Assembly: GCA_963675755.2 (NCBI GenBank)
Contig: CAXXMD010000001.1
Span: forward strand, 32,001-96,000
Source: a bacterium
GTDB lineage: Bacteria; Zhuqueibacterota; Zhuqueibacteria; Residuimicrobiales; Krinioviventaceae
Direction of reading: 5' to 3'
DNA: 64,000 nt
Below are positions 5,666 to 57,383 of this stretch, in pieces. Position 1 is the first letter of the stretch; every line of letters begins with the position of its first letter. The notes under the pieces were generated by a model, which was not told the origin of the DNA, ran no database searches, and saw only the letters and a list, made by a program, of their open reading frames with translations. A program made the translations under genes and the position numbers.

Positions 5666-5685
5666 GTTTGAATTGGAGGTTTTCA

Positions 5686-29803: not shown

Positions 29804-29858
29804 GTTAAGGAGTAATTTTACCCAAATTAAAAAAAATAAATATAAAAGGGGAGTGAAA

Positions 29859-31181
29859 ATGAAAATTACAATGCCAACTTTAGAAATTGAAGAATTTGAA
29901 GGTTTTACAAAAGAAAATGATATTTTTAATCGCGAATATTTTGCGGAGCAATTAACTAATTTAATTGTTAACACTGATGATGAACTTGTTGTTGCACTTG
30001 ATTCACCTTGGGGACAAGGCAAGACAACTTTTGTGAAAATGTGGCGTGGTTTGTTGTATAAAAAGGGGATAAAAAGTATTTACTATGATGCTTTTAAAAA
30101 TGATTATACTCATGATCCATTGTTGACACTTTTAAGTGATGTAAATGAGATAATTATAGATGAACTCAAAGATGCAAAAGGGGCAGAGTTTAAAAAGAAC
30201 GCAATTTCTATTTTAAAGACTGTTGGAAAAGTTGGACTTCGTATAGGATTGAGAACTATTACTTCAGGAATTGTAGATGATACTGTATTCAAAAATGCAG
30301 AAATAGGTGACGAATTAACAAATATTTCAGATGATTTTATTGAAAAAAGATTTAATGAACTACATACTGATAAAAATTTTATTGATAAATTTAAAATTTC
30401 GTTAAATGAAATAGTTGAGGAAATTGGTGAAACAGGGAAATTAGCTTTTTTTATTGATGAACTTGATAGATGCAGACCTGACTTTGCAATTGATTTGATT
30501 GAAAAAATAAAACATTTTTTATCAGTTCCCAATATTGTTTTTGTTTTTGTTATTAATCGGACTCAAATGGAAGAAATAATTAAGATCAGATATGGTTCAG
30601 GAATTGATGGATTGAAATATCTGCAAAAATTTGTCCATGTTTGGACAAGTTTACCTCAAAATTATAATGATTATAAAAGTAACGGCAAAATATATTTAGA
30701 ATACTGTTTAAATAGAATGAACTTTGAACAGAGTAATAGCTCTTATGGAGATGTAATAGATATTTATTCTAATTTATTGAATTATTATAATTTATCATTT
30801 AGAGAGATTGAACGTAGTTTGTCAAATTTTGCTATTATGCAAAATGTAACTAATGGTTTTAACAAATATGATTATATTTGGATTGCAATTTATATATCTA
30901 TTATAAAAGTATTATACCCAGATATTTTTATTAAGTTATTTGATAAAACAATTAATTATCCTGATCTTGTTAAAGATACTAATTTAGAGAATTTGGTTGA
31001 TCAACCACATTTGACAAAATTTGAGTCTCATCGTTTAAAGGAGAAATTAAGAGTTGAACTATCAAGTAAAGAAGAATTAGTGGAATTGAATAAAAAATAT
31101 AGTGATCAACATAGTTCCGGACTATATAAACAAGAAATTATTTCGGAAATTTGTAATTGGTTGGGGAGATTTCAAGTTTAG
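29859..31181 (+). CDS. KAP-family P-loop NTPase
   Basis: DSPWGQGKT Walker A, FIDELDRCRP Walker B, YLQKFV; strongly AT-rich. Confidence 0.9.
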   Translation: MKITMPTLEIEEFEGFTKENDIFNREYFAEQLTNLIVNTDDELVVALDSPWGQGKTTFVKMWRGLLYKKGIKSIYYDAFKNDYTHDPLLTLLSDVNEIIIDELKDAKGAEFKKNAISILKTVGKVGLRIGLRTITSGIVDDTVFKNAEIGDELTNISDDFIEKRFNELHTDKNFIDKFKISLNEIVEEIGETGKLAFFIDELDRCRPDFAIDLIEKIKHFLSVPNIVFVFVINRTQMEEIIKIRYGSGIDGLKYLQKFVHVWTSLPQNYNDYKSNGKIYLEYCLNRMNFEQSNSSYGDVIDIYSNLLNYYNLSFREIERSLSNFAIMQNVTNGFNKYDYIWIAIYISIIKVLYPDIFIKLFDKTINYPDLVKDTNLENLVDQPHLTKFESHRLKEKLRVELSSKEELVELNKKYSDQHSSGLYKQEIISEICNWLGRFQV

Positions 31182-31323: not shown

Positions 31324-32463
31324 TTATGGGGTAAACAACCAATCCGGAGAATGAGACTCGAACCGGATCATGTCATATCTTTTTCCCTCACCGTACTCGT
31401 ATAAAATTCCAATGTTACCGTTGGCAAGGCGGGTCATGCAGGAATAAGCAGATGGCCCCGCATGAACCAGTTTGGCATTTGACCAGGTTTCGCAATTGTC
31501 AAAGCTGCATTTTATGGTCATGTGTGTGCGTCCTTTGGGTACAGCGGGATTGGAAAATAATATCATGTTTTTCCCATTATACTCTCCAAAATCCAATATC
31601 GATGCCTGACAACGGGACTCTGTCAGTTGATAATCGTGGTTGATTTCACTCCAGGTTTTTCCACCGTCCGTGCTTTTTGAAATTGCCCGACTGTATTCAT
31701 CGTTATAAGAACGCATATTCATGAGTAATGTACCGTCCGATAATTCAACGATCTGGCTCTCATTGCATCCGGGTGTGATGGACTCGCTTTTGTTCCAGGT
31801 TTTGCCATGATCATCACTGTATAGTACGTGTGAACCGTAACCGTAAGGACCATTACGAATCGTACCCTCGGGATCATCATAGCTGTGGTTTGCGGGGATA
31901 ACCAGCCGGTCTTTGAAATTTTCATGTTTCATTTGAATACCAATACCGGGGCCGGTTGCATACCATCCCCATGAAGGATCTTTGAGCGTTTCTGTCATGT
32001 CTACCGGAGTGGACCAGGTTTCTCCATCATCGTCAGAATAACACAGATATACGCGACGGGTATCCAGAGATTCTTTGCGGATGATTTCCCCTTCATCATC
32101 CTGACCCAGGTTCCATGTGAGAAATAGCCAAATTCTGCCTGTGCTTTGATCTATTACCGGACATGGATTGCCGCACGTATTATTCTGATCATTCCAGATG
32201 ATCGATTCATTGCTCCAGCTGACACCATTGTCAAAGGAGCGTTTGACCAGCATATCAATATCACCGGAATCACCACCCTCGCGACCTTCACAGAATGCTA
32301 AAACCGTACCCTGAGTTGTAACAATCAATGCCGGAATTCGGTAATTCTTGTAATTCCCTTTACCATTTTGCCAAAGAATACCGGAGGCTGTTTCGTTTGA
32401 GGTACAACTGCTGAATAGCACACCTGATAGTATCATCAGTATCCATAATGATATACGTTTCAT
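31324..32463 (-). CDS. Sialidase (GH33), lipoprotein
   Basis: FSSC lipobox, YRIP motif, five Asp-boxes (SFDNGVSW, SDDDGETW, SDDHGKTW, STDGGKTW, SFDNCETW). Confidence 0.92.
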   Translation of the reverse strand: MKRISLWILMILSGVLFSSCTSNETASGILWQNGKGNYKNYRIPALIVTTQGTVLAFCEGREGGDSGDIDMLVKRSFDNGVSWSNESIIWNDQNNTCGNPCPVIDQSTGRIWLFLTWNLGQDDEGEIIRKESLDTRRVYLCYSDDDGETWSTPVDMTETLKDPSWGWYATGPGIGIQMKHENFKDRLVIPANHSYDDPEGTIRNGPYGYGSHVLYSDDHGKTWNKSESITPGCNESQIVELSDGTLLMNMRSYNDEYSRAISKSTDGGKTWSEINHDYQLTESRCQASILDFGEYNGKNMILFSNPAVPKGRTHMTIKCSFDNCETWSNAKLVHAGPSAYSCMTRLANGNIGILYEYGEGKRYDMIRFESHSPDWLFTP

Positions 32464-32476
32464 TGTAAGCTCCAAA

Positions 32477-33391
32477 TTAGTTTATCCAATCAAAGAAACC
32501 TATTTTTTTCAACTCCATTTCAAAAGAGACCAATTCTCCCTGACCGAGTGTTCGGTTAGGAAGTCGGTTCGATCCGCAACTCATTCCAATAATTTTCATC
32601 ATTCCTTTTCCGCCTATCAGCCCACCACCGTATTTAATCAGTATTTTAACAAATTCAACAGATCGGCGTTGGTATTCTCGTGCTGTTTCAATATCTCCAT
32701 CTTGAAAAGCTTTAATGATCTGGTTATATACCGGTGCCATATAGTTGTATGTACTGCCCACAGCTCCCTGGGCGCCATAGGTTAATCCGGCAAGTAATAC
32801 TTCATCATATCCGTGTAAAATGTCCCATTTCCCTTCATCCGCATACAGACATTGATACATTTCCATCAGATTATGATGTGTGAATTTGATTCCCGCAAGA
32901 TTAGGGATAAACTCGGAGGCCTGATTCAAGAAATCGGGCATGTTTAACGCAACCCCAGAGATAGAAGGGATATGATAATAATAAAATGGCAATTCGGGTG
33001 CCGCCAGTGCAATAAGCGTACAAAAAGCAACAAGCTCATTGACACTTGAGGGTTGAAGAAAGGGAGGACCCATTGCAGCAATAGCCTGTGCGCCATTTTC
33101 TGCCGCATGTTCTGCCAGTTCGCGGGATTGGCTATAAGAAGTGCTGCCTACATGAACGATGATCTTGAAATTGTCTGTAGCATATTTGCACCATTCTTCT
33201 GTCAGGGCTTTTCTTTCTTCCAGGTTTAACAGCATACCTTCACCACTGGTACCTGCTATAAAAACACCGATAACATTATCATTTTGTAATTTTTTTGCAT
33301 ATTGTTCAATCATATCGAGTTTTATTTCATCATTTTGATTGAACGGTGTAAAAGGCGCTGCAATGAGCCCTTGAGTTTTGATGATTTTCAT
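32477..33391 (-). CDS. nanA: N-acetylneuraminate lyase (DHDPS family)
   Basis: GTSGE, YYYHIP, GIKFT Schiff-base Lys, GYDE, GSTYN; in sialidase operon. Confidence 0.88.
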   Translation of the reverse strand: MKIIKTQGLIAAPFTPFNQNDEIKLDMIEQYAKKLQNDNVIGVFIAGTSGEGMLLNLEERKALTEEWCKYATDNFKIIVHVGSTSYSQSRELAEHAAENGAQAIAAMGPPFLQPSSVNELVAFCTLIALAAPELPFYYYHIPSISGVALNMPDFLNQASEFIPNLAGIKFTHHNLMEMYQCLYADEGKWDILHGYDEVLLAGLTYGAQGAVGSTYNYMAPVYNQIIKAFQDGDIETAREYQRRSVEFVKILIKYGGGLIGGKGMMKIIGMSCGSNRLPNRTLGQGELVSFEMELKKIGFFDWIN

Positions 33392-33413
33392 GGATTCTCC
33401 AAATAAACTGTGA

Positions 33414-36032
33414 TCAATTTTTGCGTTGTAAAAAACTAAACAACCAGCCAGTTATGAAACAGGTTAAAAATCCCGTTGTGGTATAGAGTAAAACATGCAC
33501 GGGTTTGTAAACGCCTACTAGATATTGTACAATAATACTTGCTGCAATTCCCAGAATTGCCCCGGTACCGTTTGCTTTTTTTGAAACAATTCCTAACAAA
33601 AATACACCACCCAGGCTGCCGAGTACAAGCCCCAGTACTTTGTTAAATTCATCCCAGAGGGACTTTATATCCCAGGTTGCCATGAATATTGCAAACAGAA
33701 TTCCCGCAATACCTACAATAAAAGATGCTGTTCTGGCAGCTTTGAGAAAGTGACTGTCACTGCCTTTGCCGAACCGTCTGTGTATATCATTGATATAGGC
33801 AGTCGCTGCCGAGTTAATACTGCTGGATAAACTGGACATGGATGCGGCAAAGATTCCCGCTATGAGCAATCCGCTTACTCCTGCCGGAAGGTTGTTCATA
33901 ATGTACCAGGGAAATATTGCATCCGCTTCTTTTAGCGTAAGACTGATTTGCTGTGGGTTTTGTCGATAGAAAACAAACAATGCCGTACCTATTGTAAAGA
34001 ATAATAATGTGGCGGGTATGACCATAATTGCATTTGTCCAGACGGTTTTTGATGCCGCTTTTGTCGAGTTTACCGTAAGGTAACGCTGTACCATTGTCTG
34101 GTCTGTACCATAAGTGGTTATGTTTGTAAAAATAGAAGCAATGATAACAGTCCAGAATCCGGGTTGTTTAAGATCAAATACCATGTTCAGAATGTTGAAT
34201 TTCTGATAATCAATCCCGGTTTCTACAATGCCTGTTAGCCCGTGGGGTACATGTACAATAATTAAAATTAGAGAAAGCAAAGCGCCTCCCAGCAGGACAA
34301 TGACCTGTAAAACATCCGTCCAGATTACAGCTTCAATACCCCCAATTGCTGTATAAATCAGGCTGAAAATCCCCATAAGCAGGATACAGGTAAAAATATC
34401 AATACCGGTCACAACATTGAGCGCTATGGAAGGGAGGAACAATACAATACCCATACGCCCAATCTGGAATATGATAAATGTCAGACTACCAATCAATCTG
34501 GTAAGCAGATTGAAACGGACTTCGAGATACTCGTAAGCTGTGGTGATATTTAATTTACGGTAATAGGGGACGAACAGAATTACAATGACCGGGGCAATCA
34601 TGAAAATACCCATATTAAGCATAAAATAAGACCAGTCTGTTGTAAATGTTTTTGCAGGGATGGCCATAAATGTAATTGCGCTGAGTGCTGTACCAAATAA
34701 CGATAATCCCGCGGCCCACCAGGGAATACGTCCGCCGCCTTTGAAAAAATCGTTGGTGCTTTTTTGTCGTTTGCTGAAATACCATCCCATTACCGCAAGT
34801 ATGCTAAAATAGATAACCAATACCATGGAATTGATCCAACCGAATTTTTCCGTACCTTCAGGAATGGATATTAAAGAGATTTTAGGCGTTCTTACTCCGG
34901 GGTGAATTTCACCGGAAGGGAGTATAAATTTATCTTTCCAGGGCACGAGTGAAGTCGTGACCTGGGTGGGGACTTGCAGCGTGTCAAACGTGTATAATTT
35001 GGATGTGATGGTATTGTAAACCCGAATTTCTCTGTTGAATCCTTTATGGTTTACCAGATGCTGTTGCAATTGATATTCAAGTTCTTTATAGGCTTTTGAA
35101 CCGGGTCTTTCATTCGCCAATGATTGCTTTATTTTTTGTTCCTTTAACAGGCCTGATCCATCAGCGGCACCGGGAAAGACAATGTTGTTTGCGCCAATGG
35201 CAAAACCTGTTCCTGCCATTACAGGGAATTGCGTTTCTCCGTTGGGGGCAAGATTCTTCCAGGTATTGAAAACCGGATCATAGGCATACCCATCAGTAAG
35301 AACATCAATACCTGCTTTTGTTTCGTTTCGACCGCTGAATAAATATATATTATTGTTCACTCCATTACTTTGTACAACTGCAACGGGGAGTTTGCGTGGC
35401 GGTCCCGGCCAGGGATCCAGGGTTTGCCATTGAAAATCGGTACTATTCATTTTAGACAGATCAAGGCTGTAAAAATGGCGGGTTTGGTCTCCGTTTAATG
35501 TACTTTTTCCTCCAAGTACATATACTGTTTGGTCGATTTGTACTGCTGCATGATTGCAAAGGGGGACAGGTAGATCCGGTAAATCAGTAATTTTAATGGA
35601 TTCCGATTCAGGATCCCACTTCATGATAAATACATTTGCACATATTGAGTTTTGATCATTACCGCCAATGCATAAAACTCCCTGATTGAGAGTGAGGGAT
35701 GCTCCATAAGCCACAGGCAAAGGTAGCGCAAAAGTCTTTGGGTGCCAGTGCGGATTGTTTTCATCTTCAAGATGCAATACATAGATATCGTTATGATAAA
35801 TCTTTGTTCCGCCTTCCCAGGGCAACTTTTTCGGGAAATTTGCCCCTCCGGCAATGAGCAGGGCATTGTTGCTGATTCCTGCAAAGGCACCGGCTACCCC
35901 AGGTTGTGTACCCATATTCTGAAGTGGCGGGATCTCTGGTAGTTGATCAAGCTGGATTTGATTCGCCGCAAAAACTGAAATGTTGATTATAGTTATAAAA
36001 ACGAGTAAAAATCGAAGCGTTTTAATTATCAT
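33414..36032 (-). CDS. Fusion of Kelch-repeat NanM-like (cyclically permuted) mutarotase and SiaT-like sodium:solute symporter
   Basis: AGGANFP..PWEGG, SGEIHPGVRTP; then SAITFMAIPA, AYEYLEVRF, DQTMVQRYL SSS motifs. Confidence 0.9.
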   Translation of the reverse strand: MIIKTLRFLLVFITIINISVFAANQIQLDQLPEIPPLQNMGTQPGVAGAFAGISNNALLIAGGANFPKKLPWEGGTKIYHNDIYVLHLEDENNPHWHPKTFALPLPVAYGASLTLNQGVLCIGGNDQNSICANVFIMKWDPESESIKITDLPDLPVPLCNHAAVQIDQTVYVLGGKSTLNGDQTRHFYSLDLSKMNSTDFQWQTLDPWPGPPRKLPVAVVQSNGVNNNIYLFSGRNETKAGIDVLTDGYAYDPVFNTWKNLAPNGETQFPVMAGTGFAIGANNIVFPGAADGSGLLKEQKIKQSLANERPGSKAYKELEYQLQQHLVNHKGFNREIRVYNTITSKLYTFDTLQVPTQVTTSLVPWKDKFILPSGEIHPGVRTPKISLISIPEGTEKFGWINSMVLVIYFSILAVMGWYFSKRQKSTNDFFKGGGRIPWWAAGLSLFGTALSAITFMAIPAKTFTTDWSYFMLNMGIFMIAPVIVILFVPYYRKLNITTAYEYLEVRFNLLTRLIGSLTFIIFQIGRMGIVLFLPSIALNVVTGIDIFTCILLMGIFSLIYTAIGGIEAVIWTDVLQVIVLLGGALLSLILIIVHVPHGLTGIVETGIDYQKFNILNMVFDLKQPGFWTVIIASIFTNITTYGTDQTMVQRYLTVNSTKAASKTVWTNAIMVIPATLLFFTIGTALFVFYRQNPQQISLTLKEADAIFPWYIMNNLPAGVSGLLIAGIFAASMSSLSSSINSAATAYINDIHRRFGKGSDSHFLKAARTASFIVGIAGILFAIFMATWDIKSLWDEFNKVLGLVLGSLGGVFLLGIVSKKANGTGAILGIAASIIVQYLVGVYKPVHVLLYTTTGFLTCFITGWLFSFLQRKN

Positions 36033-36732
36033 TTTCGTTTTCCTGTTGAATGAATTCCCAATACGGTGCAAGATGTGCTTTTATTGCATGACGATAAGAA
36101 TCAGCGTCTGATTTTTTCAAACAAGCAAAAATATCCCGATGGGTCACAATGCTTTTATTTTTTTCGAGGGTTTCATTTATAGGTCGCAAATATCGTTCAT
36201 AATTGGTTTTAACAAATGCAAAGACAGGATACATGATACTTTGCAGTTGGTTTATAAAGTCGTTTCCGGCGATTTGATGGATGCGCTGATGAAATTCCTG
36301 TTCGCTTTCAATGCTTGTGTAATTGAGGCCAAGGAGTTTTTCACGTTCCAGAATGTGTTCCAGATCGGTTATATCATTCTCATGTAACCGGGCAAAGATC
36401 AAGTCGGTCATACCAATCTCGAGAGCAATACGCATACCCATTAGATTTTTTATAGTCTTTTCGCTGAGCAGTCTTGGTGCAAGTGTGCGTTGAAAACCAA
36501 TAAGCGGTTTGGGTTCAGTAATTATAATACCCCGTTTGGTACGGGATTGTAAAATACCCAACATCCGCAATCTGCTCATTGCCTCCCTGACCACATTTCT
36601 ACTCACGCCAAACATTTCTGTAAAGCGGGCTTCATTTGGCAGCATGTCACCGGGGACAAGGTCTTCTTGCCTGATATATTCAAGGATTTTTTCTTCTATT
36701 TGATCGGCCAGTGGCCTTGAATCTATTTCCAT
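36022..36732 (-). CDS. GntR/FadR family transcriptional regulator
   Basis: GDMLPNE..FGVSRNVVREAM HTH; FCD domain with EFH. Confidence 0.93.
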   Translation of the reverse strand: MEIDSRPLADQIEEKILEYIRQEDLVPGDMLPNEARFTEMFGVSRNVVREAMSRLRMLGILQSRTKRGIIITEPKPLIGFQRTLAPRLLSEKTIKNLMGMRIALEIGMTDLIFARLHENDITDLEHILEREKLLGLNYTSIESEQEFHQRIHQIAGNDFINQLQSIMYPVFAFVKTNYERYLRPINETLEKNKSIVTHRDIFACLKKSDADSYRHAIKAHLAPYWEFIQQENENDN

Positions 36733-36747
36733 GATACAACTCGTTTG

Positions 36748-36771
36748 ATTTGTCCTATTTGTAGGACAAAT
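36748..36771. promoter_or_regulatory. Palindromic operator, probably for the FadR-type regulator
   Basis: ATTTGTCCTA-tttg-TAGGACAAAT perfect inverted repeat 15 nt upstream of the regulator start. Confidence 0.7.
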
Positions 36772-36893
36772 TAAATATTCATACTTAAATTATCAAGGAA
36801 TACTTTTTTTATTTTCTTGTGATTTTGTTATGATTTGGATATTTTAAACTGTTAGCATTCAGTCTAGTTATCTGGTAAATATATGGAGTCAAG

Positions 36894-38318
36894 ATGAGTC
36901 AGCATCCTGTAAATCGAAGATCTTTTTTGAAGTCGGCAGGCTTTATGGGGGGAGCTCTGACATTACCTTTTGTTTTTAGTAAATGCGCGAAAAGACAGAA
37001 ACATAATGTATTATTTATTTCCATAGATGATTTGAACGACTGGGTAGGTTGTATGGGAGGGCATCCTGATGTGAAAACACCAAATCTGGATCGGTTAGCC
37101 AAACGCGGTGTTTTATTCAACAAAGCGTATTGTGCTGCTCCCGCTTGTAATCCATCCCGGGCAGCCCTGATGACAGGAATACGGCCCTCAACCTCGGGTG
37201 TATATATAAACTCGCAACCCTGGCGGACAAGCGAAGTGCTGAAAAATGCGGTGACTATACCTCAGCACTTTATGGCACATGGATATACTGCCAAAGCAAG
37301 CGGCAAGATTTATCATGGAAATTATCCGGACCCGCAATCCTGGCAGGAATACTGGCCGTCCCAGCAACAAAATAAACCTGACGATCCACTGCCACCAGCT
37401 GACACTTTGCCCATTAACGGTATACCTAATACCCGGCATTTTGACTGGGGTCCATTAGAAAATGCCAGTGATGAAATGGGAGACTGGAAGGTAACAGATT
37501 GGGTGATTGATCAATTACAGCAAAAACATGAAAAACCTTTTTTCCTGGGTTGTGGAATATTTAAACCACATTTGCCCTGGTTTGTGCCCAAGAAATTTTT
37601 CCACATGTATCCGCTGGAATCAATTACTTTACCGGAGGTGAATGAAAACGATTTTGATGATATACCCCAGGCTGGCGATGATATTGCGAGACACCATGAC
37701 CATGATAATGTGTTAAAATATCATCAATGGAAGAAAGCTGTACAAGGATATTTGGCAAGTATCAGTTTTGCGGATGAATGTTTGGGCCGTGTTCTGGATG
37801 CTCTGGATAACAGTGCCTATAGGGATAATACCATCATTGTTTTATGGTCTGATCATGGATGGCATTTGGGTGAAAAACTACACTGGAGGAAATTTGCATT
37901 ATGGGAAGAAGCTACTCATAATGTAATGATGTGGGTTGTACCGGGTATGACTTCACCGGGCTTGCAATGTGATTCACCAGTGAACCTGTTGGATATTTAT
38001 CCTACATTAATTGAGCTTTGTGATTTGGGACCCAAACCCGAGCTTGAAGGAACGAGTTTGCTGCCATTACTTGAAAATCCCAGTTCTTTGTGGGAAAGGC
38101 CATCTTTGACGACACATGGCAAGAATAATCACAGTCTTCGCAGCAATCGTTGGCGGTATATACAATATGCAGATGGAAGTGAAGAGTTGTATGACCATGA
38201 TAATGATGGGTTAGAATGGACCAATCTGGCAATGGATGAAAAGTATGGTTCCGTAAAACAAGAGCTGAAACAATGGCTGCCCAAAACCAATGTTGAGCCT
38301 ATTGCGAGTGATCGTTAA
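36894..38318 (+). CDS. Tat-exported sulfatase (iduronate/choline sulfatase-like)
   Basis: NRRSFLK, IDDLNDW, CNPSRAALMTG, KPHLP, SDHGWHLGEK. Confidence 0.93.
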   Translation: MSQHPVNRRSFLKSAGFMGGALTLPFVFSKCAKRQKHNVLFISIDDLNDWVGCMGGHPDVKTPNLDRLAKRGVLFNKAYCAAPACNPSRAALMTGIRPSTSGVYINSQPWRTSEVLKNAVTIPQHFMAHGYTAKASGKIYHGNYPDPQSWQEYWPSQQQNKPDDPLPPADTLPINGIPNTRHFDWGPLENASDEMGDWKVTDWVIDQLQQKHEKPFFLGCGIFKPHLPWFVPKKFFHMYPLESITLPEVNENDFDDIPQAGDDIARHHDHDNVLKYHQWKKAVQGYLASISFADECLGRVLDALDNSAYRDNTIIVLWSDHGWHLGEKLHWRKFALWEEATHNVMMWVVPGMTSPGLQCDSPVNLLDIYPTLIELCDLGPKPELEGTSLLPLLENPSSLWERPSLTTHGKNNHSLRSNRWRYIQYADGSEELYDHDNDGLEWTNLAMDEKYGSVKQELKQWLPKTNVEPIASDR

Positions 38319-38340
38319 TTTGATTGTTCAGAGGTGCTGA

Positions 38341-38976
38341 TTGAAAAATTCTCTTTTTATTATAGGATTCTACCTGCTGTCAGGTTTTTCCTGTATACTG
38401 GGACAAGTTGAGGAACAATCCGATTCAGTTAAAATGCAGATTTTTATCTCATTTCTGCAAGAGCATTTTGATGATATTCATGACGTGACCATGTATTATC
38501 ATCATCAAAATGCGGATTTGAATGGATTAATCGTTCTGAATATGGACTGGCAGGACGGCAGACTGGTTGAAGCAGTGGCTGTTGAAAATAAAGCCGGAAA
38601 TGATCAGCTTGTAAACGATTTAATCACGGTGTTGAAAACATGGGAAATTGATAATTTAGGTCCGTTACAAACGCAACTTCCTCTAAGAGTAAAGATTGTA
38701 GGCAAGGATGATCCTGAATTCCTGCATACAGGGATTATAACCGGAGAAATTATCGATGCCGCGGGCAGTCCGTTAAGCGGAGCGAAAATTTCTTTCAAGG
38801 GTGAGGCATCTGTACCTGATGCCCGGACCAATCGAAAAGGTATATTTGTAAGAACATTGATTCCACCGGGGAAATATGATGTATATTTAACGGTTCAGGA
38901 TAGCGAATCAGTAATGATTAAATCGGTAGACCTGAGTGCTGGTAAACATGAACGAATAAATTATATTTTACAATAA
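38341..38976 (+). CDS. Secreted protein: TonB-C/AgmX-PglI-like domain plus carboxypeptidase-regulatory-like domain
   Basis: Signal peptide; ITGEIIDAAGSPLSGAKI, RTNRKGIF, IPPGKYDV. Confidence 0.6.
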   Translation: MKNSLFIIGFYLLSGFSCILGQVEEQSDSVKMQIFISFLQEHFDDIHDVTMYYHHQNADLNGLIVLNMDWQDGRLVEAVAVENKAGNDQLVNDLITVLKTWEIDNLGPLQTQLPLRVKIVGKDDPEFLHTGIITGEIIDAAGSPLSGAKISFKGEASVPDARTNRKGIFVRTLIPPGKYDVYLTVQDSESVMIKSVDLSAGKHERINYILQ

Positions 38977-38987
38977 TTCTTTTAAAT

Positions 38988-39017
38988 AAAAAAAAGGGGC
39001 AAAAGCCCCTTTTTTTT
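38988..39017. terminator. Bidirectional terminator
   Basis: A8-ggggc-aaaa-gcccc-T8 between convergent genes. Confidence 0.85.
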
Positions 39018-41955
39018 ATTTATTAATGTTGTTGGCAATTACAGAGCGTGCATAATAGAATATAAAAGGATTTTGTTCAAAACAAGATAGATTATGTGCC
39101 AACATATTTTCTATAGTGTTTTTAACAGGTACTGCATCTTTGTTGGATTCTTTGAGCATGTACAAATATTCTGCGTCTTCTAAACCATCACGAAGATTTT
39201 CAAAACGAATTGATGTTACAGGTGGTGCAATCAGAGCTTGTTGTGGTTTATCTCGTTGTGGTGGATAGATCAGACGTCCGTCACCATTACCCCACATACC
39301 GCCATCTTGATTTACAGACATGGCCTGTTCCCATGGATTTTGGCGCCAATATGTAATTCGCCAGTATAAGCATCCATCTGCCTGGTACTTGTCTACCATC
39401 CATGAACGAATACGATGATTGATGGCGGGATGATCAATAAAGTTATTAGGATACGGTGCTTTGGGTCCTGTACATACATACCACCAAACTTTTTCACCCA
39501 ATGTTTGACGTTCAAGGCTGCGTTCGGGATTGAAATGGTTAAAGATCGGGACCCATAAATTTATTGAATCATAAAAATATGGAGCCGGGGCATCTTCATG
39601 GTTAAATGTCAACAGTCTGTGCATATCGGGACATGCTTCTTTTAGTAACTGAAATCCCGGCAAAATATCCGAATAAGATGCTATTGGTGGTTCATCCACC
39701 CAGTACCAGTATACTTTATCAAGCCAGCCTTTTGCTCTTAGGTGCTCCTGGATTTGGCCATAAATCATTTTAAACTGACGATTGTATTCCGGAGAATAAC
39801 GCGGGTTGCCATTCAACTCTGCCGGCAGCCCACCAAATCTGAACGAATTGAAATGAAACTCGTCCAGATAGCGTTCCATTGCAATGTCAAAGTTTGTATA
39901 GTCCATTTCTACCTGGCTGAAATCGCTGGAAAATTTCCAGGTTATGGGAGAGTAGCGATGCGGGCTGTAAGGAGAAATTCGCCGTTTTGCGCAGAATTGC
40001 ATATACAAATCATAGGTTTGCTTTTCTTGTTCTTTTGTCAAGTTACCGTGATAATCTTTATTTATGTGTATTCCATAGGCAGTTTCAGTATGTGTTTCCT
40101 TAGAAAGTGTGAAATCATAAACCTGAACCGTTAACGGAATTTGGGCTATCTTTTTGTTTCGGCTCATAATTTGAATATTTCCAATATAAATGCCTGCCTG
40201 TTGATCAGGATTAGCATAGACAGTTATCCAGAATGGCTGGTTTTGATTTGCATTTAATGTGACAAGAGTGTTCAAGTCGGGCAAAGCATCCGGCCACCAG
40301 CCCCGGCTTCCAAATACATCAGAAGTATCTTGAATTTCTACATATTCAACAAATTGAATGCTAATATTTTCGTTGTTGATTGCAGCGCCATTACTGGTAT
40401 GCAAATCAGAAACGTTGATACTAACATCTGGCAAGATTTTATCAGGATTTATTACAATCTGAAAAGGCTCATATTCATGTTTTGCCAAAGACAAGTTGAT
40501 CCCTTGTAATTCAAAACCGGGAACGGGTTCTACTCGAGATACTTTTTCGATTGAGGGACAATACCAAATATTGGCATTATTTTGTGTTAAAAGTTTGGAT
40601 TTAAGTGTGTATAGACGATCCAACACAGCATATGGATTATTATTAATCAGCTTTTCATCAATTCCTTCAAGTCGTTTAGCTAGGTTCTTTTTTAACCAAC
40701 TCTCGCAATCTTTTTTACGTGATATTTCAAGAGTGTGCTGGTAAAGTGTTTTAGCAGCTTCAATGGGAAGGTCTATTTCGAATTGTTTATTAGCAGGTAT
40801 TTTAAAGCCTTTTCCGTTATTATCTAACAGGTATAGCCTGCGACCCAGATCTGGTGCCTCCAACAATACGTTCAAATAGAAAGTAGAGACATCGGGACGA
40901 AGTAATGTAAATGTTCCATCCCCATTGTCTTTGACACCATTCTCTAATTTAATGAAATTCGAGTCCAGCATTTCAACCAGAGGTTTATAGGTGACTGGGG
41001 TGCCATTGGGGCCATATAGTTTCAATTTTAATTTACTTTCACCCTTGAAAATAAAAATAGGTTCTATCTCTTTTACCTTTTGATTTATTGTAACCTCGCT
41101 TTTGATCCAATAAGGTCCATCGGGTTGATCTTTCCAGGAGAGTGTAACAGGTTTTCCCAAAATGCTGTTTCTTTCAGCGAGAACTGTTCCTTTGCCATTA
41201 ATTAATAATGTTTTATAAACGGGCTTTTTTTCAAGAAGCATTAACCGTGATGTTCTACCAATATTGAGCGTTAACTCTTTATCAGACCATTTTTTTTCAA
41301 TAAGAAAATCAGGATTTGTGTTTTGGGCCAGTTCTTTAATTTTTTCTTCAGGATCAACAACCCGGGCGTAAAATCCCCAACTGCCTCTGCCCTGATCTAT
41401 TTTCAATAAAAGCAGGTTTTTCCCTTTTTTTACATTGGTCCAGACCCAGTCGTTATCTTTTGTTGCCCCGCGTGAACGGTGGTTATCCCAAATCATTTCA
41501 CCATTTAGCCATGCTCTTATTCCATCATTACTACCCAAACCCAGCATAATTTGTTGATCTTTATTTGATTCAAGATAACAGGCGGCATATCCCACTGCGG
41601 GGACTGTGGTGTTGAATATTTTTTTGAGGTCAATATAATCATTATCTTCATTGACAAGGTGCCATTGTCGTATCTGGTTGTCAGGTCCAGTGATTTTTAG
41701 TCCTGGTTCAGGAATTATTCCAGTTTCTCCGCCAGCGGATTTCAAATAGTCAATATAAAAGCCAAGAGTTGTTTCATCATGCAGATATTCTGTAACACCT
41801 TCTTTTAACGGATTGGGGAATGGACCACAAACAATCCATTCTTGAATAAAATCTTTACTGTTGACATTCATTACCGGAATATTATTGCTAAGCGCAGAGT
41901 TGACGAATCCGGCTAGTATAAAAAAATAGATAAATAATTCTGCTTTCTTCCGCAT
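39016..41955 (-). CDS. Secreted GH123-like / DUF4091 glycoside hydrolase with N-terminal PA14-like domain
   Basis: AKHEYEPFQI, WPDAL, WVDEP, VWWYVC, NGDGRLIYP, SIRFENLRDGLEDAEY; AGGAG RBS before 41955. Confidence 0.8.
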   Translation of the reverse strand: MRKKAELFIYFFILAGFVNSALSNNIPVMNVNSKDFIQEWIVCGPFPNPLKEGVTEYLHDETTLGFYIDYLKSAGGETGIIPEPGLKITGPDNQIRQWHLVNEDNDYIDLKKIFNTTVPAVGYAACYLESNKDQQIMLGLGSNDGIRAWLNGEMIWDNHRSRGATKDNDWVWTNVKKGKNLLLLKIDQGRGSWGFYARVVDPEEKIKELAQNTNPDFLIEKKWSDKELTLNIGRTSRLMLLEKKPVYKTLLINGKGTVLAERNSILGKPVTLSWKDQPDGPYWIKSEVTINQKVKEIEPIFIFKGESKLKLKLYGPNGTPVTYKPLVEMLDSNFIKLENGVKDNGDGTFTLLRPDVSTFYLNVLLEAPDLGRRLYLLDNNGKGFKIPANKQFEIDLPIEAAKTLYQHTLEISRKKDCESWLKKNLAKRLEGIDEKLINNNPYAVLDRLYTLKSKLLTQNNANIWYCPSIEKVSRVEPVPGFELQGINLSLAKHEYEPFQIVINPDKILPDVSINVSDLHTSNGAAINNENISIQFVEYVEIQDTSDVFGSRGWWPDALPDLNTLVTLNANQNQPFWITVYANPDQQAGIYIGNIQIMSRNKKIAQIPLTVQVYDFTLSKETHTETAYGIHINKDYHGNLTKEQEKQTYDLYMQFCAKRRISPYSPHRYSPITWKFSSDFSQVEMDYTNFDIAMERYLDEFHFNSFRFGGLPAELNGNPRYSPEYNRQFKMIYGQIQEHLRAKGWLDKVYWYWVDEPPIASYSDILPGFQLLKEACPDMHRLLTFNHEDAPAPYFYDSINLWVPIFNHFNPERSLERQTLGEKVWWYVCTGPKAPYPNNFIDHPAINHRIRSWMVDKYQADGCLYWRITYWRQNPWEQAMSVNQDGGMWGNGDGRLIYPPQRDKPQQALIAPPVTSIRFENLRDGLEDAEYLYMLKESNKDAVPVKNTIENMLAHNLSCFEQNPFIFYYARSVIANNINK

Positions 41956-42033
41956 ATGAGAGGCTCCTTGAAAATGTTTGTAAAAGGGGTTTGTAAATAA
42001 ATTGATCAGGTTTTTTATTATGCCTGTAAAGAT

Positions 42034-42063
42034 GTGAGAACGAGCGTTTTTACCCGTTCTCAC
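42034..42063 (-). terminator. Intercistronic hairpin
   Basis: gtgagaacg / cgttctcac stem just after the 42075 stop. Confidence 0.55.
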
Positions 42064-42074
42064 TTTTGATGGAT

Positions 42075-45000
42075 TTATTTATTTAAATTTTCCAGCAATG
42101 TTATGATTTCTTTTCTTGTTGATTGGATCTTTTGCCAGCGAGCATCTTCAACCTTTCTGAGCACAGACATTCCGTCGTTTGTCGGCTGTGTTCCATCAGC
42201 ATCCCAACCGCAAAAGGCTGCAATTTCAAAGGCATCTGTGGTTAATAATTTTTGTGCTGCCTGTTTTGTTTGTGGATCTGCATCTTTAGCATTATTAACG
42301 GCTTGTTTCAACAATTGCAGCATACTGTAATCTTCAACTCCATCTCGAATGGCTTCCCAGCGTTTGCTTGCAACAACACCAACTCCCTGGTATATCAATA
42401 AATAATCGTTACCGCCGACTGGCGTGAACCATGGATTGTATCGTGATGTACAATAGGACCAAAAACCAATTCCGGTTAGATCGTGATGATCGGCTAACCA
42501 GGCTTGTGCCCGGTAATAACCCAGAGGAGACTGGTGCTTGGCATTACCATCACACGCATAAGTCCAGATGGTTTTATTCGTGGTTTTGATGAATGCCAGC
42601 TTGTCTGCACCTATATCCAGTAAATAATCGTTACGGTTGGGGCACCAGATATCTACATACGGAGCCATTTTTTCAAGATCTTCCATGGATGCTTTACCCA
42701 CAGGGTCGGTATAGATTTGTACCCGTTCATCTACTTTACGAATTACTTTGGAATAGGAGATAAATTTTTCAACCAATCCTTCATGCAAACCCGGCTCATC
42801 AATGGGGTAGAGGGCATAATCTTTATAGTCAATACCCAGCGTTTTCATGTGATTGAACCAGGCTTTAAGCCATTCAGCATGGGCTTTTTCCCAAACCGGA
42901 TCAAACGGCTTTGCCGGTCCACTCAATGAGTGCTGGTAATTAAAAAAGAGTATGGTACCATGAGGTGAATGGGCTTTCATATATTCATCATGTTTGCTAA
43001 AATCAATTTCACCTATAATGTTACCGTTATTATCGAATTTGGCTTTTGGTGAAAAATTATTTGTAGCAACAAAAACATTTGTACCATGACTCACCTGATC
43101 GTCAAGTGCTAATTGTGGGATATCCTTAAGAATAGAAGTATGTACATAACCCCAGTGACACAAATTGAGCTCTTGTTTTGCTGGCAATGCAATTTTTGAA
43201 ACATTCACTACAAGATTGGCAACAGCCTCTTTTGATTCAATTTCCATTGAACGTATACGAATAGCGCTTTTCCAAACTCCGGGATTTAATGCAGTGGTAT
43301 TGATATTAATCCACAATTGACGCAAACCCCATTGTGGAATCATTAATGTTTGTCCCTGTCCAAGAAGCGGCAACGCATCACCGGATTTATCAAGCATTTC
43401 TGTTGGCACATCAATAACTTCATGTAAAGTCATTGCTTTTGAAGCTAGTATGGAACTGGAATCTTTTTCCGAAATAAACGCATCAGGCTCAATTCTTATA
43501 AATATGGGTTTATCACTAAAATTTGCAAGGTTAAATGCAGCGGATTCTGTTTCTCCGGCAAAGGCATATATTGAAACATTGGGTACATCCGTACGACCTT
43601 CAATGATTTCGTCGCAATTCCCAAATGGCGCCCAGGGATTTGCGGCATATACAGCCAAAGATGTACCCGCATTGATTGCTGCCTCTGTCATCTTTTGGAG
43701 GGTCATTGCATCATTATGAAGAGAAGCAACCTGTTCTCTCAATTCAATGCGTTGTAGATTGTCTAGTGTTCCGGCCACCTGAGTTTTTTCTTGTAATGCC
43801 GTAAGACGGAATTCTAATAACTGAGACTGGTTGGCAACAAGTTTTGATTCCGGAAGTTGAGGTAATAAGGATTGAATATCTGCCAGGATAGATTTGATAT
43901 CAGCCATATCTTTAGCATAGGGAATAATATAAAATGATTTTTCAATCTCTGATATTGTTTGCTTGCCTTGTTTTAATTTTGCTATAAATTGAAGGTTTAC
44001 GGCGTTCCGGGCATTCAAAGTATATGCGAGCTTGAAATTAAAACTCGAGTCCTGAAAAGCTGCAGTTTGAAACAGTGGAGTGGAATTGTTTTCAATAATT
44101 GAAAGCTCGATTGTCAGCTTTTTCTTTTCCGGATTTTCAACTGTTACAGTAAAGTTATTTTTTGCTACATACATATCGCCATAGCCAATTGAAGCAATAT
44201 GTGCTGTTTGAGGTTTTTTCAGTTGTTGAGTGGTACCCGTGCGTGCCGAGTTACCACGATACTCGGAGAATTGAATTATAGGTTTTGAAGCGGTTTTTGA
44301 TATTGCCCATGAATAAGCACTTACATCGCTTGCGGAAGGGCATATAACCGCAAGATTGCCGTTGTTTCTAAAGTCTACGATTGTGGGGCTTGAATTACAT
44401 TTACCGGATAACTGGATTTCTTCTACAAGATCTCCTTCGGCGCTAAAGACGTACAGATGCGAGTCATTTCCGGCAATTAATATTTCCAGTTTCGAATCGC
44501 CATCAATATCTGCAATTGTCGGTGAACGTCTCGCTTTTTGATATACATTAGCTGTCCATTGCAGTTTGCCTTTGTTGTCAAGAGTAACAACATTACCCAT
44601 GAGATCCACCGCGATAATTTCTTTTATACCATCTAGATCGATATCACCAATTGAAACACCATCATGAATGGGATGCTCCATGGCATATTGCCATATAATT
44701 TCGCCCTTGTTATCCAGAACAGTTAAATTCTCTGCACAGGCTGTAACGATTTCCGGTTTATTATCATTGTCAAGATCGTATACTTGAGGACTGGTACCAG
44801 AAGATTTTCCTTTTAAATGCCACAGTTCTTTTCCATTGCTGGAAAAACAAATCAGGGGAAATGTTGTGCTACCAGCAAGGATTTCATTTTCTCCATCGCC
44901 ATCTAGATCAGCAATGGCGGGGCAGGTATTGAAATTTCCCTCAATTTTTGTTTGCCAAAGTTGCTTGCCGGAATAATCGAGACAGGTTAAATGGCCCTTG

Positions 45001-45488
45001 CTGTCTACCGCAATGATCTCCATTTTTTTGTCATTTACAAGATTTCCCACTGCAAGACTTGTTGTGCCCCAATTGATTATTGCGGGTAGATCAAAATCCC
45101 ATTTATGTTTACCATTTTTCCCATCAAGACATACCACTTTTCCAGGATTTGTAATTGCCAGGATCTCGAGCTTGTTATCTCCATTCAGGTCAGCAAGGGT
45201 GGAGGGATTACTGATTTGAACATTTGTTTCATAGGTCCATATTTTCTGGCCATTGGAATTAACTGCCATTATCTGGCCGGCAGTTGTACAGAGAACCAGA
45301 TCATTAATACCATCACGATCAAGATCGCCAACACCAGGCGAGGCATCTACATAGCCGTTTGGAGTTTTTAACTGCCATAACCTGGTACCCGCAAAACTAG
45401 TTGAACAGCTAAATACAATACCCAGCAGGATTAACATAGAGTTTTGTAAAAAATTACCAAAACCTGCACGCTTGAATGTCGTTGTCAT
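42075..45488 (-). CDS. Secreted FG-GAP/PQQ-like beta-propeller fused to DUF4091 (GH123-like) domain
   Basis: Repeated DLDxDGxxEI motifs; PIDEPG, VDIWCP, GIGFWSY, SKRWEAIRDGVEDY. Confidence 0.8.
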   Translation of the reverse strand: MTTTFKRAGFGNFLQNSMLILLGIVFSCSTSFAGTRLWQLKTPNGYVDASPGVGDLDRDGINDLVLCTTAGQIMAVNSNGQKIWTYETNVQISNPSTLADLNGDNKLEILAITNPGKVVCLDGKNGKHKWDFDLPAIINWGTTSLAVGNLVNDKKMEIIAVDSKGHLTCLDYSGKQLWQTKIEGNFNTCPAIADLDGDGENEILAGSTTFPLICFSSNGKELWHLKGKSSGTSPQVYDLDNDNKPEIVTACAENLTVLDNKGEIIWQYAMEHPIHDGVSIGDIDLDGIKEIIAVDLMGNVVTLDNKGKLQWTANVYQKARRSPTIADIDGDSKLEILIAGNDSHLYVFSAEGDLVEEIQLSGKCNSSPTIVDFRNNGNLAVICPSASDVSAYSWAISKTASKPIIQFSEYRGNSARTGTTQQLKKPQTAHIASIGYGDMYVAKNNFTVTVENPEKKKLTIELSIIENNSTPLFQTAAFQDSSFNFKLAYTLNARNAVNLQFIAKLKQGKQTISEIEKSFYIIPYAKDMADIKSILADIQSLLPQLPESKLVANQSQLLEFRLTALQEKTQVAGTLDNLQRIELREQVASLHNDAMTLQKMTEAAINAGTSLAVYAANPWAPFGNCDEIIEGRTDVPNVSIYAFAGETESAAFNLANFSDKPIFIRIEPDAFISEKDSSSILASKAMTLHEVIDVPTEMLDKSGDALPLLGQGQTLMIPQWGLRQLWININTTALNPGVWKSAIRIRSMEIESKEAVANLVVNVSKIALPAKQELNLCHWGYVHTSILKDIPQLALDDQVSHGTNVFVATNNFSPKAKFDNNGNIIGEIDFSKHDEYMKAHSPHGTILFFNYQHSLSGPAKPFDPVWEKAHAEWLKAWFNHMKTLGIDYKDYALYPIDEPGLHEGLVEKFISYSKVIRKVDERVQIYTDPVGKASMEDLEKMAPYVDIWCPNRNDYLLDIGADKLAFIKTTNKTIWTYACDGNAKHQSPLGYYRAQAWLADHHDLTGIGFWSYCTSRYNPWFTPVGGNDYLLIYQGVGVVASKRWEAIRDGVEDYSMLQLLKQAVNNAKDADPQTKQAAQKLLTTDAFEIAAFCGWDADGTQPTNDGMSVLRKVEDARWQKIQSTRKEIITLLENLNK

Positions 45489-45575
45489 CGAGTTCTCCCT
45501 TTTTAAAGTGAGGTTGGTGTAACATTATTATGTTTATTTATACTAGAATTTATTTTTTGACTGGTTTAATAAAGA

Positions 45576-45593
45576 TGTCCTATAAATAGGAAA
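45576..45593. promoter_or_regulatory. Second copy of the putative FadR-type operator
   Basis: tgtcctataaataggaaa matches the minus-strand read tgtcctacaaataggaca of 36751-36768 at 16/18. Confidence 0.6.
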
Positions 45594-45642
45594 GAAATAT
45601 ATTTGAAAAATTATATATCCGGGAAAGGATGAGTTACTTTTT

Positions 45643-45672
45643 AAAAAAAAGGGACCCGAAGGTCCCGTTTTT
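45643..45672 (-). terminator. Rho-independent terminator
   Basis: Minus strand gggacc-ttcg-ggtccc-T8, cUUCGg tetraloop. Confidence 0.9.
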
Positions 45673-46574
45673 TATTCTTTAACAGGTTGATCACCAAATG
45701 TTTCATATGACCATGTAAAATCTTCATCTTTAATATTAACCATTACATAACCGGGAGGGAAGCCATCTCTGGCACCTTTCCACCATGCACCGCAAACAGC
45801 ACCACCCGTAATGTAATGAACATCATTGTATACGATTTCTTCTACAACATGTAAATGTCCTTGAAGGACAAGTTTTAAATTATAACCGTCAAAACATTTT
45901 ATAACATCAACAGAGTTGGTAACAACTGCGCCATTACTTAGGGCACTTGTGGCACCGTTTTTCATTTGTTGATAAACCGATGTCAGGGGAATATGCAAGG
46001 AAACAACAATGGGTTTTTGTTTGCCAGTTTGCATGAGGTCTTGGCGCAGCCAATCGATTTGAAGAGAATCAATGTAACCATAATATTCACGGTCATTGGT
46101 AAAGCCAACAGCATCCAAAATAATAAAATGCCATCCTTTATGATCAAATGAGAAATAGGTTTTTCCATCTCCCAGTTTGTTTTTAAACATTTCTTTACCA
46201 AACATTGGGTTTTCAGGTTGGATACCGCTTTTTTTATATAAACCAAAATTTTCATGATTACCCAGTGTATTGTAAACTGGCATCTGGAATATCGCAGATT
46301 TGTCCAAATATAATTGGTATAATTGTTCCGCGCGTTCCTGTGATTGTCCCAATGCGTCCATTATGAGATCACCACCAGTAATCACAAAGTCGGGATTTAA
46401 AGTGTTAACACTGTTTATACATTTTTCAAATCTGGCACCTGCTTGTAATTCGGGTTGAATATGGATGTCTGTTAGAAACGCAAAACTAAACTCTGTACTC
46501 TTATTATTTGTGCATGAAGATAATGTTAATAGAACAATGAAAAGTGTTATTACCGACTTTAGATTTTTGATCAT
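45672..46574 (-). CDS. Calcineurin-like metallophosphoesterase lipoprotein (Icc/CpdA-like)
   Basis: LSSC lipobox; TDIH, GGD, GNHE, HIP, GHLH. Confidence 0.9.
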   Translation of the reverse strand: MIKNLKSVITLFIVLLTLSSCTNNKSTEFSFAFLTDIHIQPELQAGARFEKCINSVNTLNPDFVITGGDLIMDALGQSQERAEQLYQLYLDKSAIFQMPVYNTLGNHENFGLYKKSGIQPENPMFGKEMFKNKLGDGKTYFSFDHKGWHFIILDAVGFTNDREYYGYIDSLQIDWLRQDLMQTGKQKPIVVSLHIPLTSVYQQMKNGATSALSNGAVVTNSVDVIKCFDGYNLKLVLQGHLHVVEEIVYNDVHYITGGAVCGAWWKGARDGFPPGYVMVNIKDEDFTWSYETFGDQPVKE

Positions 46575-46639
46575 TAGAGATTCCTTTCCTTATTTAAAAA
46601 GAGTATACGAAAAATAGACATAATTAGCGAATTATTTTT

Positions 46640-47719: not shown

Positions 47720-47732
47720 TCATTAACTCCTG

Positions 47733-50855: not shown

Positions 50856-51017
50856 GAAAACCTCACTTCTATTGATACACAATTATAATTTTTTATTAAT
50901 TATTATATACCACGCTAGTTTCAGTGACAAGTGTTTTTTTTATAATTATATTGTGTGTTTTTTAATATATTTTTTATTTTATGTATTGAAATTGGTGCAA
51001 TATATATAATTAATATC

Positions 51018-57323: not shown

Positions 57324-57383
57324 TAATCCTCCCAAAGTTATGGTGTGTTGAATGTTTAAAAAATTCCCTGAATCAAATTCAAT

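Follow-up and report, generated by a model that had tools for sequence, protein, structure and literature searches.

A conserved predicted operator beside a NanR-like regulator gene in a Zhuqueibacterota bacterium, and a probable look-alike before two GH123-type hydrolase genes

We analyzed a stretch of 64,000 nucleotides (nt; the window) from a bacterium of the Zhuqueibacterota (GenBank assembly GCA_963675755.2, contig CAXXMD010000001.1, positions 32,001 to 96,000). It carries a cluster of sialic-acid genes headed by a regulator gene, and a separate pair of genes for large hydrolases of the GH123 type. A palindrome precedes the regulator gene (site 1), and a similar sequence precedes the hydrolase pair (site 2). 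A first-pass annotation of this DNA had proposed the two sites as one shared operator, joining both gene sets into a candidate sialoglycan regulon. Here, we describe the genes and the two sites and weigh that proposal. Genome-wide counts refer to the host genome (G000; 6.48 Mb, 98% complete), and the sole congeneric genome compared is that of a sister species (G001).

The sialic-acid cassette and its regulator

The regulator gene (36022–36732, minus strand) heads a tight minus-strand cluster. It encodes a 236-amino-acid (236-aa) NanR-like protein of the GntR family, FadR subfamily, with a winged helix-turn-helix (Pfam GntR, residues 8–70, 6e-16) followed by an FCD domain (residues 98–222, 7.7e-13). 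Its best NCBIfam model is NanR (NF003011), at 97.1 bits, and Escherichia coli NanR (6on4) is the second-best match in a search of the Protein Data Bank (PDB; E 6e-10). The cluster continues on the same strand with a fusion of a NanM-type sialic-acid mutarotase and a sodium:solute symporter (33414–36071; Pfam NANM 2.3e-41, SSF 3.7e-45), a NanA-like N-acetylneuraminate lyase (32477–33391; Pfam DHDPS 6e-52), and a BNR/Asp-box sialidase (31324–32475; Pfam BNR_2 1.8e-40). The likely start of the NanM-symporter is the ATG at 36032, with a signal-peptide-like N-terminus from Met14. N-acetylneuraminate lyase is the best NCBIfam model for the NanA-like protein, although its 168 bits are below the cut-off of 281. 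The sialidase is probably a lipoprotein, judged by a likely start at Met5 and the ...LFSSC that follows.

The same association recurs in other genomes. A database search returned 164 relatives of the regulator at E ≤ 1e-20, from which 80 loci were taken; one belongs to the sister species, leaving 79 others, in which nan genes were tallied from the annotated locus table. We find a nanA homologue in 58 of these 79 loci, usually directly downstream of the regulator, and the NanM-symporter fusion beside the regulator in many of them. At least one of nanA, the sialidase, and the nanM-symporter adjoins the regulator in 70 of the 79. Outside its own genus, the best relatives of the regulator are 50–58% identical to it, and those that carry a name are Bacteroidota (such as Draconibacterium, Maribellus, Mariniphaga, Arenibacter, and Kriegella). 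Across Bacteroidota, orthologues adjoining nan genes are 38–59% identical.

The edge of the cassette differs between the two congeneric genomes. The host has a gene for a KAP-family P-loop NTPase (29787–31181) between a GDPD gene and the sialidase. In the corresponding locus of the sister species (L011), an unannotated 350-aa open reading frame (ORF) of like size (3410–4462) is followed almost directly by the sialidase (4517–5668). This suggests an insertion in the host or a deletion in the sister species.

The predicted operator palindrome

Site 1, ATTTGTCCTA-TTTG-TAGGACAAAT (36748–36771), is a 24-base-pair (24-bp) palindrome with perfectly complementary 10-nt arms. It lies within the 161-nt gap between the regulator gene and a divergent sulfatase gene, with its near edge 15 nt from the regulator ATG (36732, minus strand). 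The first-pass annotation had described a perfect palindrome before a FadR-type regulator operon, in a gap shared with a sulfatase bearing a twin-arginine translocation (Tat) signal, and both the sequence and the domains confirm that description. Three hexamers can be discerned in site 1: ATTTGT cct ATTTGT agg ACAAAT. Of these, the last two form a 15-bp core box, ATTTGT-AGG-ACAAAT (36757–36771), without mismatches to the motif ATTTGT-N3-ACAAAT, and the end of this box is 24 nt upstream of the regulator ATG. The extra ATTTGT half-site at 36748–36753 generates the longer palindrome.

The core box is a recurrent feature of this regulator family. We sought it within 260 nt upstream of the orthologous regulators in 78 loci with upstream sequence (L058, which starts at the gene, was dropped). 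The motif ATTTGT-N3-ACAAAT is present exactly in 49 of the 78, with one mismatch in 15, with two in 8, and with three or more in 6, so that 72 of 78 loci have it with at most two mismatches. Its 3-nt center varies, with 13 different versions among the 64 sites with no more than one mismatch (CCT/AGG and CAG are the commonest). The conserved part is thus the arms, ATTTGT and ACAAAT, not the center. Across 963 kb of regulator loci, boxes with at most one mismatch are intergenic in 71 cases and coding in 9, and there is usually one per locus.

Site 1 stands out equally within its own genome. Scored with a matrix built from other species only, with the genus of the host left out, it reaches 29.9 bits and is the top match in the host genome. 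The next best matches score 18–20 bits, and 9 of the 13 inspected fall inside genes. In the sister species, site 1 is identical at 24 of 24 positions and the surrounding intergenic region at 147 of 162, more conserved than the flanking coding DNA (~88%). The operator consensus of the FadR subfamily is TnGTnnnACnA, which the box, as TTGT-N3-ACAA, fits exactly. Three DNA runs over 36000–46600 came from the same strain only and showed no informative variant at site 1 or site 2.

Taken together, these sequence comparisons predict a genuine autoregulatory operator of an ordinary kind at site 1, serving a NanR-like, FadR-type repressor. The earlier proposal of an autoregulatory FadR-type operator for the sialic-acid operon is thus upheld by the footprint in 72 of 78 orthologous loci.

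The surroundings of the box show further regularities. In many Bacteroidota loci (L013–L091), TAT precedes the left operator arm and gives TATATTTG, which we take to resemble the Bacteroidota −7 promoter motif. Bacteroidota loci also have a further (T/A)TTTGT hexamer 9 bp upstream, often resulting in three hexamers with 9-bp spacing; the three-hexamer layout of site 1 is mirrored relative to the gene. Enzymes of the AGE family (N-acylglucosamine 2-epimerase) would be expected to take the step that follows NanA. The host genome has three such genes, all far away from the cassette and without a strong operator (C1:309130-310152, C3:2081253-2082374, and C3:206903-207922). The third contains a one-mismatch core box at C3:207385, probably by chance.

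The hydrolase genes and the look-alike site

The first gene of the hydrolase pair (42075–45488, minus strand) encodes a 1137-aa protein in which an FG-GAP/PQQ-like β-propeller (residues ~35–410) is fused to a GH123-like region (~610–1070) containing YPIDEP at residues 894–899. Pfam assigns it to GH123_cat, and it scores 27.8 bits against PF13320 (cut-off 23.1). Its AlphaFold model has a predicted local distance difference test (pLDDT) value of 85. In a Foldseek search with the model, NgaDssm (8k2j) is the best match for the C-terminal 600 residues (E 1.5e-21, template modeling score 0.70); further matches are a Niabella β-N-acetylgalactosaminidase, BvGH123, and CpNga123 (entries 8p4l, 5l7r, and 5fqe). 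At the N-terminus, β-propellers are the best folds. The protein belongs to a family of ~1140-aa members that are 50–70% identical across records from KSB1, Bacteroidales, Calditrichaeota, Hydrogenedentes, and Pirellulales. D897, E898, and P899 are the same in all 23 family sequences, and the family profile matches 8k2j at E 7e-16.

The second gene (39016–41955, minus strand) encodes another DUF4091/GH123-like hydrolase (Pfam GH123_cat 1.1e-28, with GH123 N-terminal domains; PF13320 101 bits against the same cut-off of 23.1). It consists of a signal peptide, an N-terminal module of ~450 aa without a Pfam family, and a GH123-like catalytic region with WVDEP. We consider ATG 41955 a more likely start than GTG 42063, as AGGAG lies 8 nt upstream of it and the signal peptide follows. 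The match of the protein to 8k2j (E 8e-32) pairs WVDEP with ADEP, which by its position would be the published catalytic pair. With hhalign, the FG-GAP protein and the second hydrolase align at 95.6% probability, placing YPIDEP on WVDEP and the DE pair on DE.

Two claims of the first-pass annotation are therefore sustained. Both hydrolases are of the GH123/DUF4091 type, as seen in Pfam GH123_cat, in the matches to 8k2j, and in the fold of the FG-GAP model. Both also have the adjacent Asp-Glu pair (PIDEP and WVDEP), which is aligned between them and invariant as D897/E898 in the FG-GAP family. The "PA14" label given to the second hydrolase has to be dropped: the protein has no match to Pfam PA14 (PF07691) even at E ≤ 1, with no family at that threshold for residues 37–300 and none relevant for residues 301–500. 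According to excerpts of the study by Sumida et al. (PMC11087588), the DE motif is present in 94% of 734 DUF4091 sequences, most of which are expected to be β-N-acetylgalactosaminidases, and its catalytic role extends beyond GH123 to four new groups. From sequence and model, both hydrolases are most likely secreted, GH123-type, substrate-assisted β-N-acetylhexosaminidases, predicted to be directed at N-acetylgalactosamine (GalNAc).

Most family members share a 999-aa gene (G000:C3:1870130-1871659), and the second hydrolase in the window is a paralogue that has diverged from it. The N-terminal module of the second hydrolase (41164–41955, residues 37–300) recurs at 29–44% identity at the start of ~860-aa proteins in several relatives, and appears to be a mobile, probably carbohydrate-binding unit. 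The sister species carries the second hydrolase as a pseudogene, broken by a 1650-nt gap and by five or more in-frame stops spread over three fragments (L011 ~12170–13617). The FG-GAP gene itself is intact there, at 84% identity. The 119-nt gap between the two genes in the window contains a perfect 9-bp stem, GTGAGAACG ... CGTTCTCAC, with a 12-nt loop (42034–42063) and without a T-run, which may serve as an element for processing or attenuation. This stem includes the GTG at 42063 with which the long ORF call starts.

Two hairpins read from the sequence delimit the pair. One resembles an intrinsic terminator and ends the upstream metallophosphoesterase gene (45651–45666). The other is a bidirectional terminator-like hairpin, GGGGC-AAAA-GCCCC with flanking A and T runs (38988–39017), between the hydrolase unit and the convergent sulfatase unit. 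Thus, the hydrolase pair would be a transcription unit of its own.

Site 2, TGTCCTATAAATAGGAAA (45576–45593), lies 87 nt upstream of the ATG of the FG-GAP gene (45488). It had been described as a 16/18 copy of site 1 at that distance, which is correct for the minus-strand reading of site 1 (TGTCCTACAAATAGGACA) only; against the plus-strand reading, the identity is 14/18. Measured against the arms TGTCCTA-N4-TAGGACA, it agrees at 13 of 14 positions. A scan of the host genome for these arms with at most one mismatch returns sites 1 and 2 only, and five more places appear at two mismatches. The expectation from base composition is 0.027 exact and 1.15 one-mismatch sites. When any 18-mer of the 24-mer is allowed at ≥16/18 on either strand, there are three places besides site 1, including site 2. 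Allowing for the look-elsewhere effect, a match like site 2 is expected ~0.02–0.03 times per 64-kb window and ~0.01 times within 10 kb. The resemblance between the two sites is thus unusual (p ~0.003–0.03, depending on the search space) but only moderately improbable.

The resemblance is not where the regulator family is conserved. Aligned to the family box, site 2 is AGATGT-CCT-ATAAAT: it deviates at 3 of the 12 arm positions and matches site 1 mainly in the variable center. In the symmetric version of the other-species matrix, site 2 scores 8.5 bits. The 71 orthologous sites that serve as the reference for true operators, scored by leave-one-out, center on 28.7 bits (median); 69 of them reach at least 16. 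The host genome has approximately 67 distinct sites (134 hits, counting both strands) with scores no lower than that of site 2. Core matches with up to three mismatches occur seven times in the 1370 intergenic nt between 28000 and 52000, site 2 included, and three of these are in the promoter region of site 2. In an oriented matrix from the close clade, site 2 ranks 13th, at 12.7 bits. We set this rank aside as support, as the extra score comes from flanks that face away from the gene at site 2. In the orthologues, these flanks keep their orientation to the downstream gene and are probably promoter features.

Nor is site 2 conserved. At its position, the sister species has TATCCTGTATATAGGATG, with 4 of 14 mismatches, a score of −8.8 bits, and no match at two or fewer mismatches. 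Identity over site 2 is 13/18, compared with 123/169 across the whole intergenic region. This is no better than the surroundings, and site 2 therefore leaves no footprint. Phylogenetic footprinting, suggested in the first-pass annotation, is thus positive for site 1 and negative for site 2. The site is absent from the orthologous promoter in the only congeneric genome compared, a result that the annotation itself had named as contrary to its proposal.

Regulon structure and comparison with known systems

We also find that the two gene sets do not travel together in the other loci examined. Among the 79 non-congeneric regulator loci, there is no GH123-like gene within 8 kb of the regulator. Conversely, neither the regulator nor nanA is found in 65 FG-GAP-DUF4091 loci, of which 61 are metagenomic and 4 come from relatives; another DUF4091 homologue is nearby in 7 of the 65. 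The metagenome scan was queried with the family alignment (a scan with the single FG-GAP protein as query gave no loci), and relatives of 65–70% identity, known from another search, are not among the 61. Among 40 relatives of the host, 8 have an FG-GAP orthologue and 1, the sister species, has the regulator. Five regulator-holding Bacteroidota genomes have no FG-GAP-DUF4091 orthologue at E ≤ 1e-30 with the host protein as query. The neighbors of the FG-GAP orthologue in four relatives (GH78, GH3, heparinase II/III-like, and DUF1349/CARDB) offer no consistent substrate clue.

The host also differs from the usual bearers of the cassette. There is no SusD homologue in its 98%-complete genome, its genes show clear Shine-Dalgarno sequences, and a 1240-aa PKD-repeat protein (53613–57335) carries the C-terminal sorting domain of type IX secretion. 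The lack of SusD speaks against Bacteroidia, and a count of three prepilin-like FTLIELL motifs in six frames speaks against the PVC group; the host looks like a member of the FCB group that falls outside typical Bacteroidia. We infer that the nan cassette was acquired horizontally from Bacteroidota and set beside native hydrolase genes.

In our favored explanation, to which we assign a probability of roughly 0.7, site 1 is the operator of a local NanR-type regulon, site 2 is a fortuitous look-alike, and the hydrolases are a separate unit. A dimer of the regulator would bind the 15-bp inverted repeat ATTTGT-AGG-ACAAAT (36757–36771), and the extra ATTTGT at 36748–36753 may offer a second, weaker contact. 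The end of the box is 24 nt upstream of the regulator ATG, so occupancy should block the promoter or the transcription start of the operon of regulator, NanM-symporter, NanA, and sialidase. By analogy with E. coli NanR, sialic acid or a catabolite would then dislodge the repressor. The cassette itself would have passed from Bacteroidota to a host with type IX secretion signals and without SusD.

Several observations weigh against this explanation. Site 2 is the sole other place in the host genome within one mismatch of the arms, and it is 8.8 kb from site 1. It is intergenic, and its 87-nt distance from an operon for glycan degradation is plausible for an operator. Its deviation from ACAAAT to ATAAAT occurs in natural autoregulatory sites (e.g., L047, L049, L056, L072, and L074). 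Its loss in the sister species coincides with the pseudogenization of the second hydrolase, and might represent decay after a loss of function. A scan for the sigma-70 consensus on the gene strand found no promoter at either site, and promoter occlusion at site 1 is predicted from position only. Finally, pairing a sialidase with a GH123 enzyme makes functional sense: excerpts of a report on SiaBb3 of Bifidobacterium bifidum (PMC12856340) describe a GH33-GH123 fusion that removes N-acetylneuraminic acid (Neu5Ac) and then GalNAc from Sda/GM2, with the structure GalNAc-beta1-4(Neu5Ac-alpha2-3)Gal.

Most of these points favor the arrangement originally proposed: site 2 would be a second target of the NanR-like repressor, and one sialoglycan regulon would take in the nan genes, the sulfatase, and both hydrolases. 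The low chance expectation of site 2 speaks for it, as do the 13/14 arm and 16/18 overall agreement, the left-arm GT and CCT center that site 2 keeps from the box, and the logic of combined sialidase and GH123 action on GalNAc-beta1-4(Neu5Ac)Gal epitopes (PMC12856340 and PMC11087588). However, site 2 is weak on the conserved arms, below 69 of the 71 true sites, and its rank in the oriented matrix stems from flanks that face the wrong way. In the sister species it is lost, and the position is no better kept than neutral flanks. Furthermore, the regulator family typically has a single local operator, and the two gene sets are never together elsewhere in the loci examined. Because site 2 is weak and not conserved, we consider a shared regulon unlikely, and the claim that one operator joins the nan operon to both hydrolases is not sustained.

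As a history, a shared regulon would mean that the acquired regulator recruited native hydrolase genes in this lineage specifically. That is, a Bacteroidota-type NanR cassette would have entered a SusD-less bacterium of the FCB group, and a degenerate operator would have arisen before two native GH123-type hydrolase genes. We regard this course of events as doubtful. If true, it would have brought a family of propeller-fused β-N-acetylgalactosaminidases under sialic-acid-inducible control, in a regulon directed at sialoglycans that are sulfated or like Sda/GM2. It would also have caught the growth of a regulon in progress, with the sister species having lost both site 2 and one hydrolase.

It is improbable that site 2 instead belongs to something else, for instance a −10-like promoter segment or a site for a different transcription factor, and is like the NanR operator by coincidence. 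The region must hold the promoter of the hydrolase operon, because a terminator lies just upstream. A short inverted repeat, TCCT-N6-AGGA, is common to both species (TCCTATAAATAGGA in the host and TCCTGTATATAGGA in the sister species), and its TCCT...AGGA and central TA-rich stretch are kept while the NanR-specific positions (the G of TGT and the outer arms) are not. However, identity over this repeat is 12/14, not significantly above the regional background of 73%, and there is no promoter consensus on the strand of the gene at site 2. Most improbable of all is that site 1 is conserved as a promoter element with its left arm overlapping TATATTTG, rather than as a repressor site: many orthologous sites do read ttatATTTGT, but the right arm ACAAAT is as strongly conserved as the left, dyad symmetry is kept while the 3-nt center varies freely, the box is found in both orientations with respect to the gene and matches the FadR-type TnGTnnnACnA, and a host that uses Shine-Dalgarno sequences and is without SusD keeps it perfectly.

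The divergent unit on the other side of site 1 may share its control. The sulfatase gene (36894–38318, plus strand; Pfam Sulfatase 2.7e-43) encodes an S1 sulfatase whose N-terminus, MSQHPVNRRSFLK, includes a twin-arginine motif (RRSFLK). Its best PDB matches are an arylsulfatase entry (6hhm, 1e-61) and iduronate-2-sulfatase. Directly after it lies a gene for a small protein with a CarboxypepD_reg-like domain (38341–38976, plus strand; PF13620 2.4e-11). Sulfatase homologues of 39–44% identity are found inside 4 of the 79 nan loci (L023, L045, L056, and L082), which modestly supports a connection of the sulfatase with the nan genes. Control of the sulfatase unit by site 1 is plausible.

Farther out, two adjacent genes for sensor kinases (46640–50882) lie just upstream of the hydrolase unit. 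One has a receiver with HisKA_2/HWE, and the other is a 1049-aa protein with multiple PAS domains and HisKA_2/HWE. These kinases are an alternative candidate regulator for the neighborhood. A GH29 α-L-fucosidase gene (15180–16478), encoding an enzyme of the host-glycan type, is 15 kb from the nan operon, and no operator-like site was found at this gene.

Excerpts of published work on E. coli NanR (PMC8012715) describe a GntR/FadR-type repressor of the sialoregulon that controls nanA and uptake genes from a promoter operator, with hexamers ~9 bp apart and DNA binding that is weakened by Neu5Ac. Three cooperative dimers bind direct (GGTATA)3 repeats by way of an N-terminal extension of 32 residues. 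The window regulator shares the winged helix-turn-helix and FCD architecture, and NanR is its nearest named model, although its score is below the curated cut-off of 260 bits. Unlike the E. coli operator as described in those excerpts, its operator is an inverted repeat, ATTTGT-N3-ACAAAT, not GGTATA direct repeats. Furthermore, the alignment to 6on4 starts at residue 30 of 6on4 and residue 6 of the regulator, and the N-terminal extension is thus missing. FadR and other palindrome-binding regulators of the FadR subfamily offer another parallel: a 15–17 bp dyad would accommodate a dimer in the same manner. The window regulator differs from FadR in the specificity of its effector domain and in its regulon.

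The hydrolases belong to the recently expanded DUF4091/GH123 β-N-acetylgalactosaminidase superfamily. The FG-GAP protein shares its fold with NgaDssm (8k2j), BvGH123, and CpNga123, and both hydrolases share GH123_cat and the aligned DE motif with them. In contrast to these enzymes, to which identity in structural alignments is only 14–17%, the FG-GAP protein carries an N-terminal propeller of ~400 aa and a long helical linker, and the second hydrolase an extra N-terminal region of ~450 aa. The propeller-fused form is a large, conserved, uncharacterized family spread over several phyla, and is therefore worth assaying on its own. A link from these hydrolases to sialoglycan substrates would be useful if true; the evidence for it is one weak, non-conserved DNA likeness. 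In SiaBb3, the link between the two activities is a covalent fusion, whereas in the window it consists of 5–9 kb proximity and a weak look-alike site.

The closest functional counterpart in Bacteroidota is the NanR of Bacteroides (BT0433), which excerpts of its description (PMC3878776) assign to the ROK family. Like that protein, the regulator family described here would act as a local regulator of sialic-acid utilization in Bacteroidota. Unlike it, the family is of the GntR/FCD type and, by record titles, is mainly from marine or sediment Bacteroidota (Prolixibacteraceae, Arenibacter, and Kriegella, among others). A literature search turned up no account of a nan regulator of the GntR type in Bacteroidetes or Flavobacteria. 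ATTTGT-N3-ACAAAT is a well-defined operator motif for a widespread GntR/FCD regulator. Many Bacteroidota of marine and sediment origin have this regulator next to sialic-acid genes, and the window adds a host of a different kind. The motif provides a handle for predicting sialic-acid regulons where the ROK-type NanR of Bacteroides is absent.

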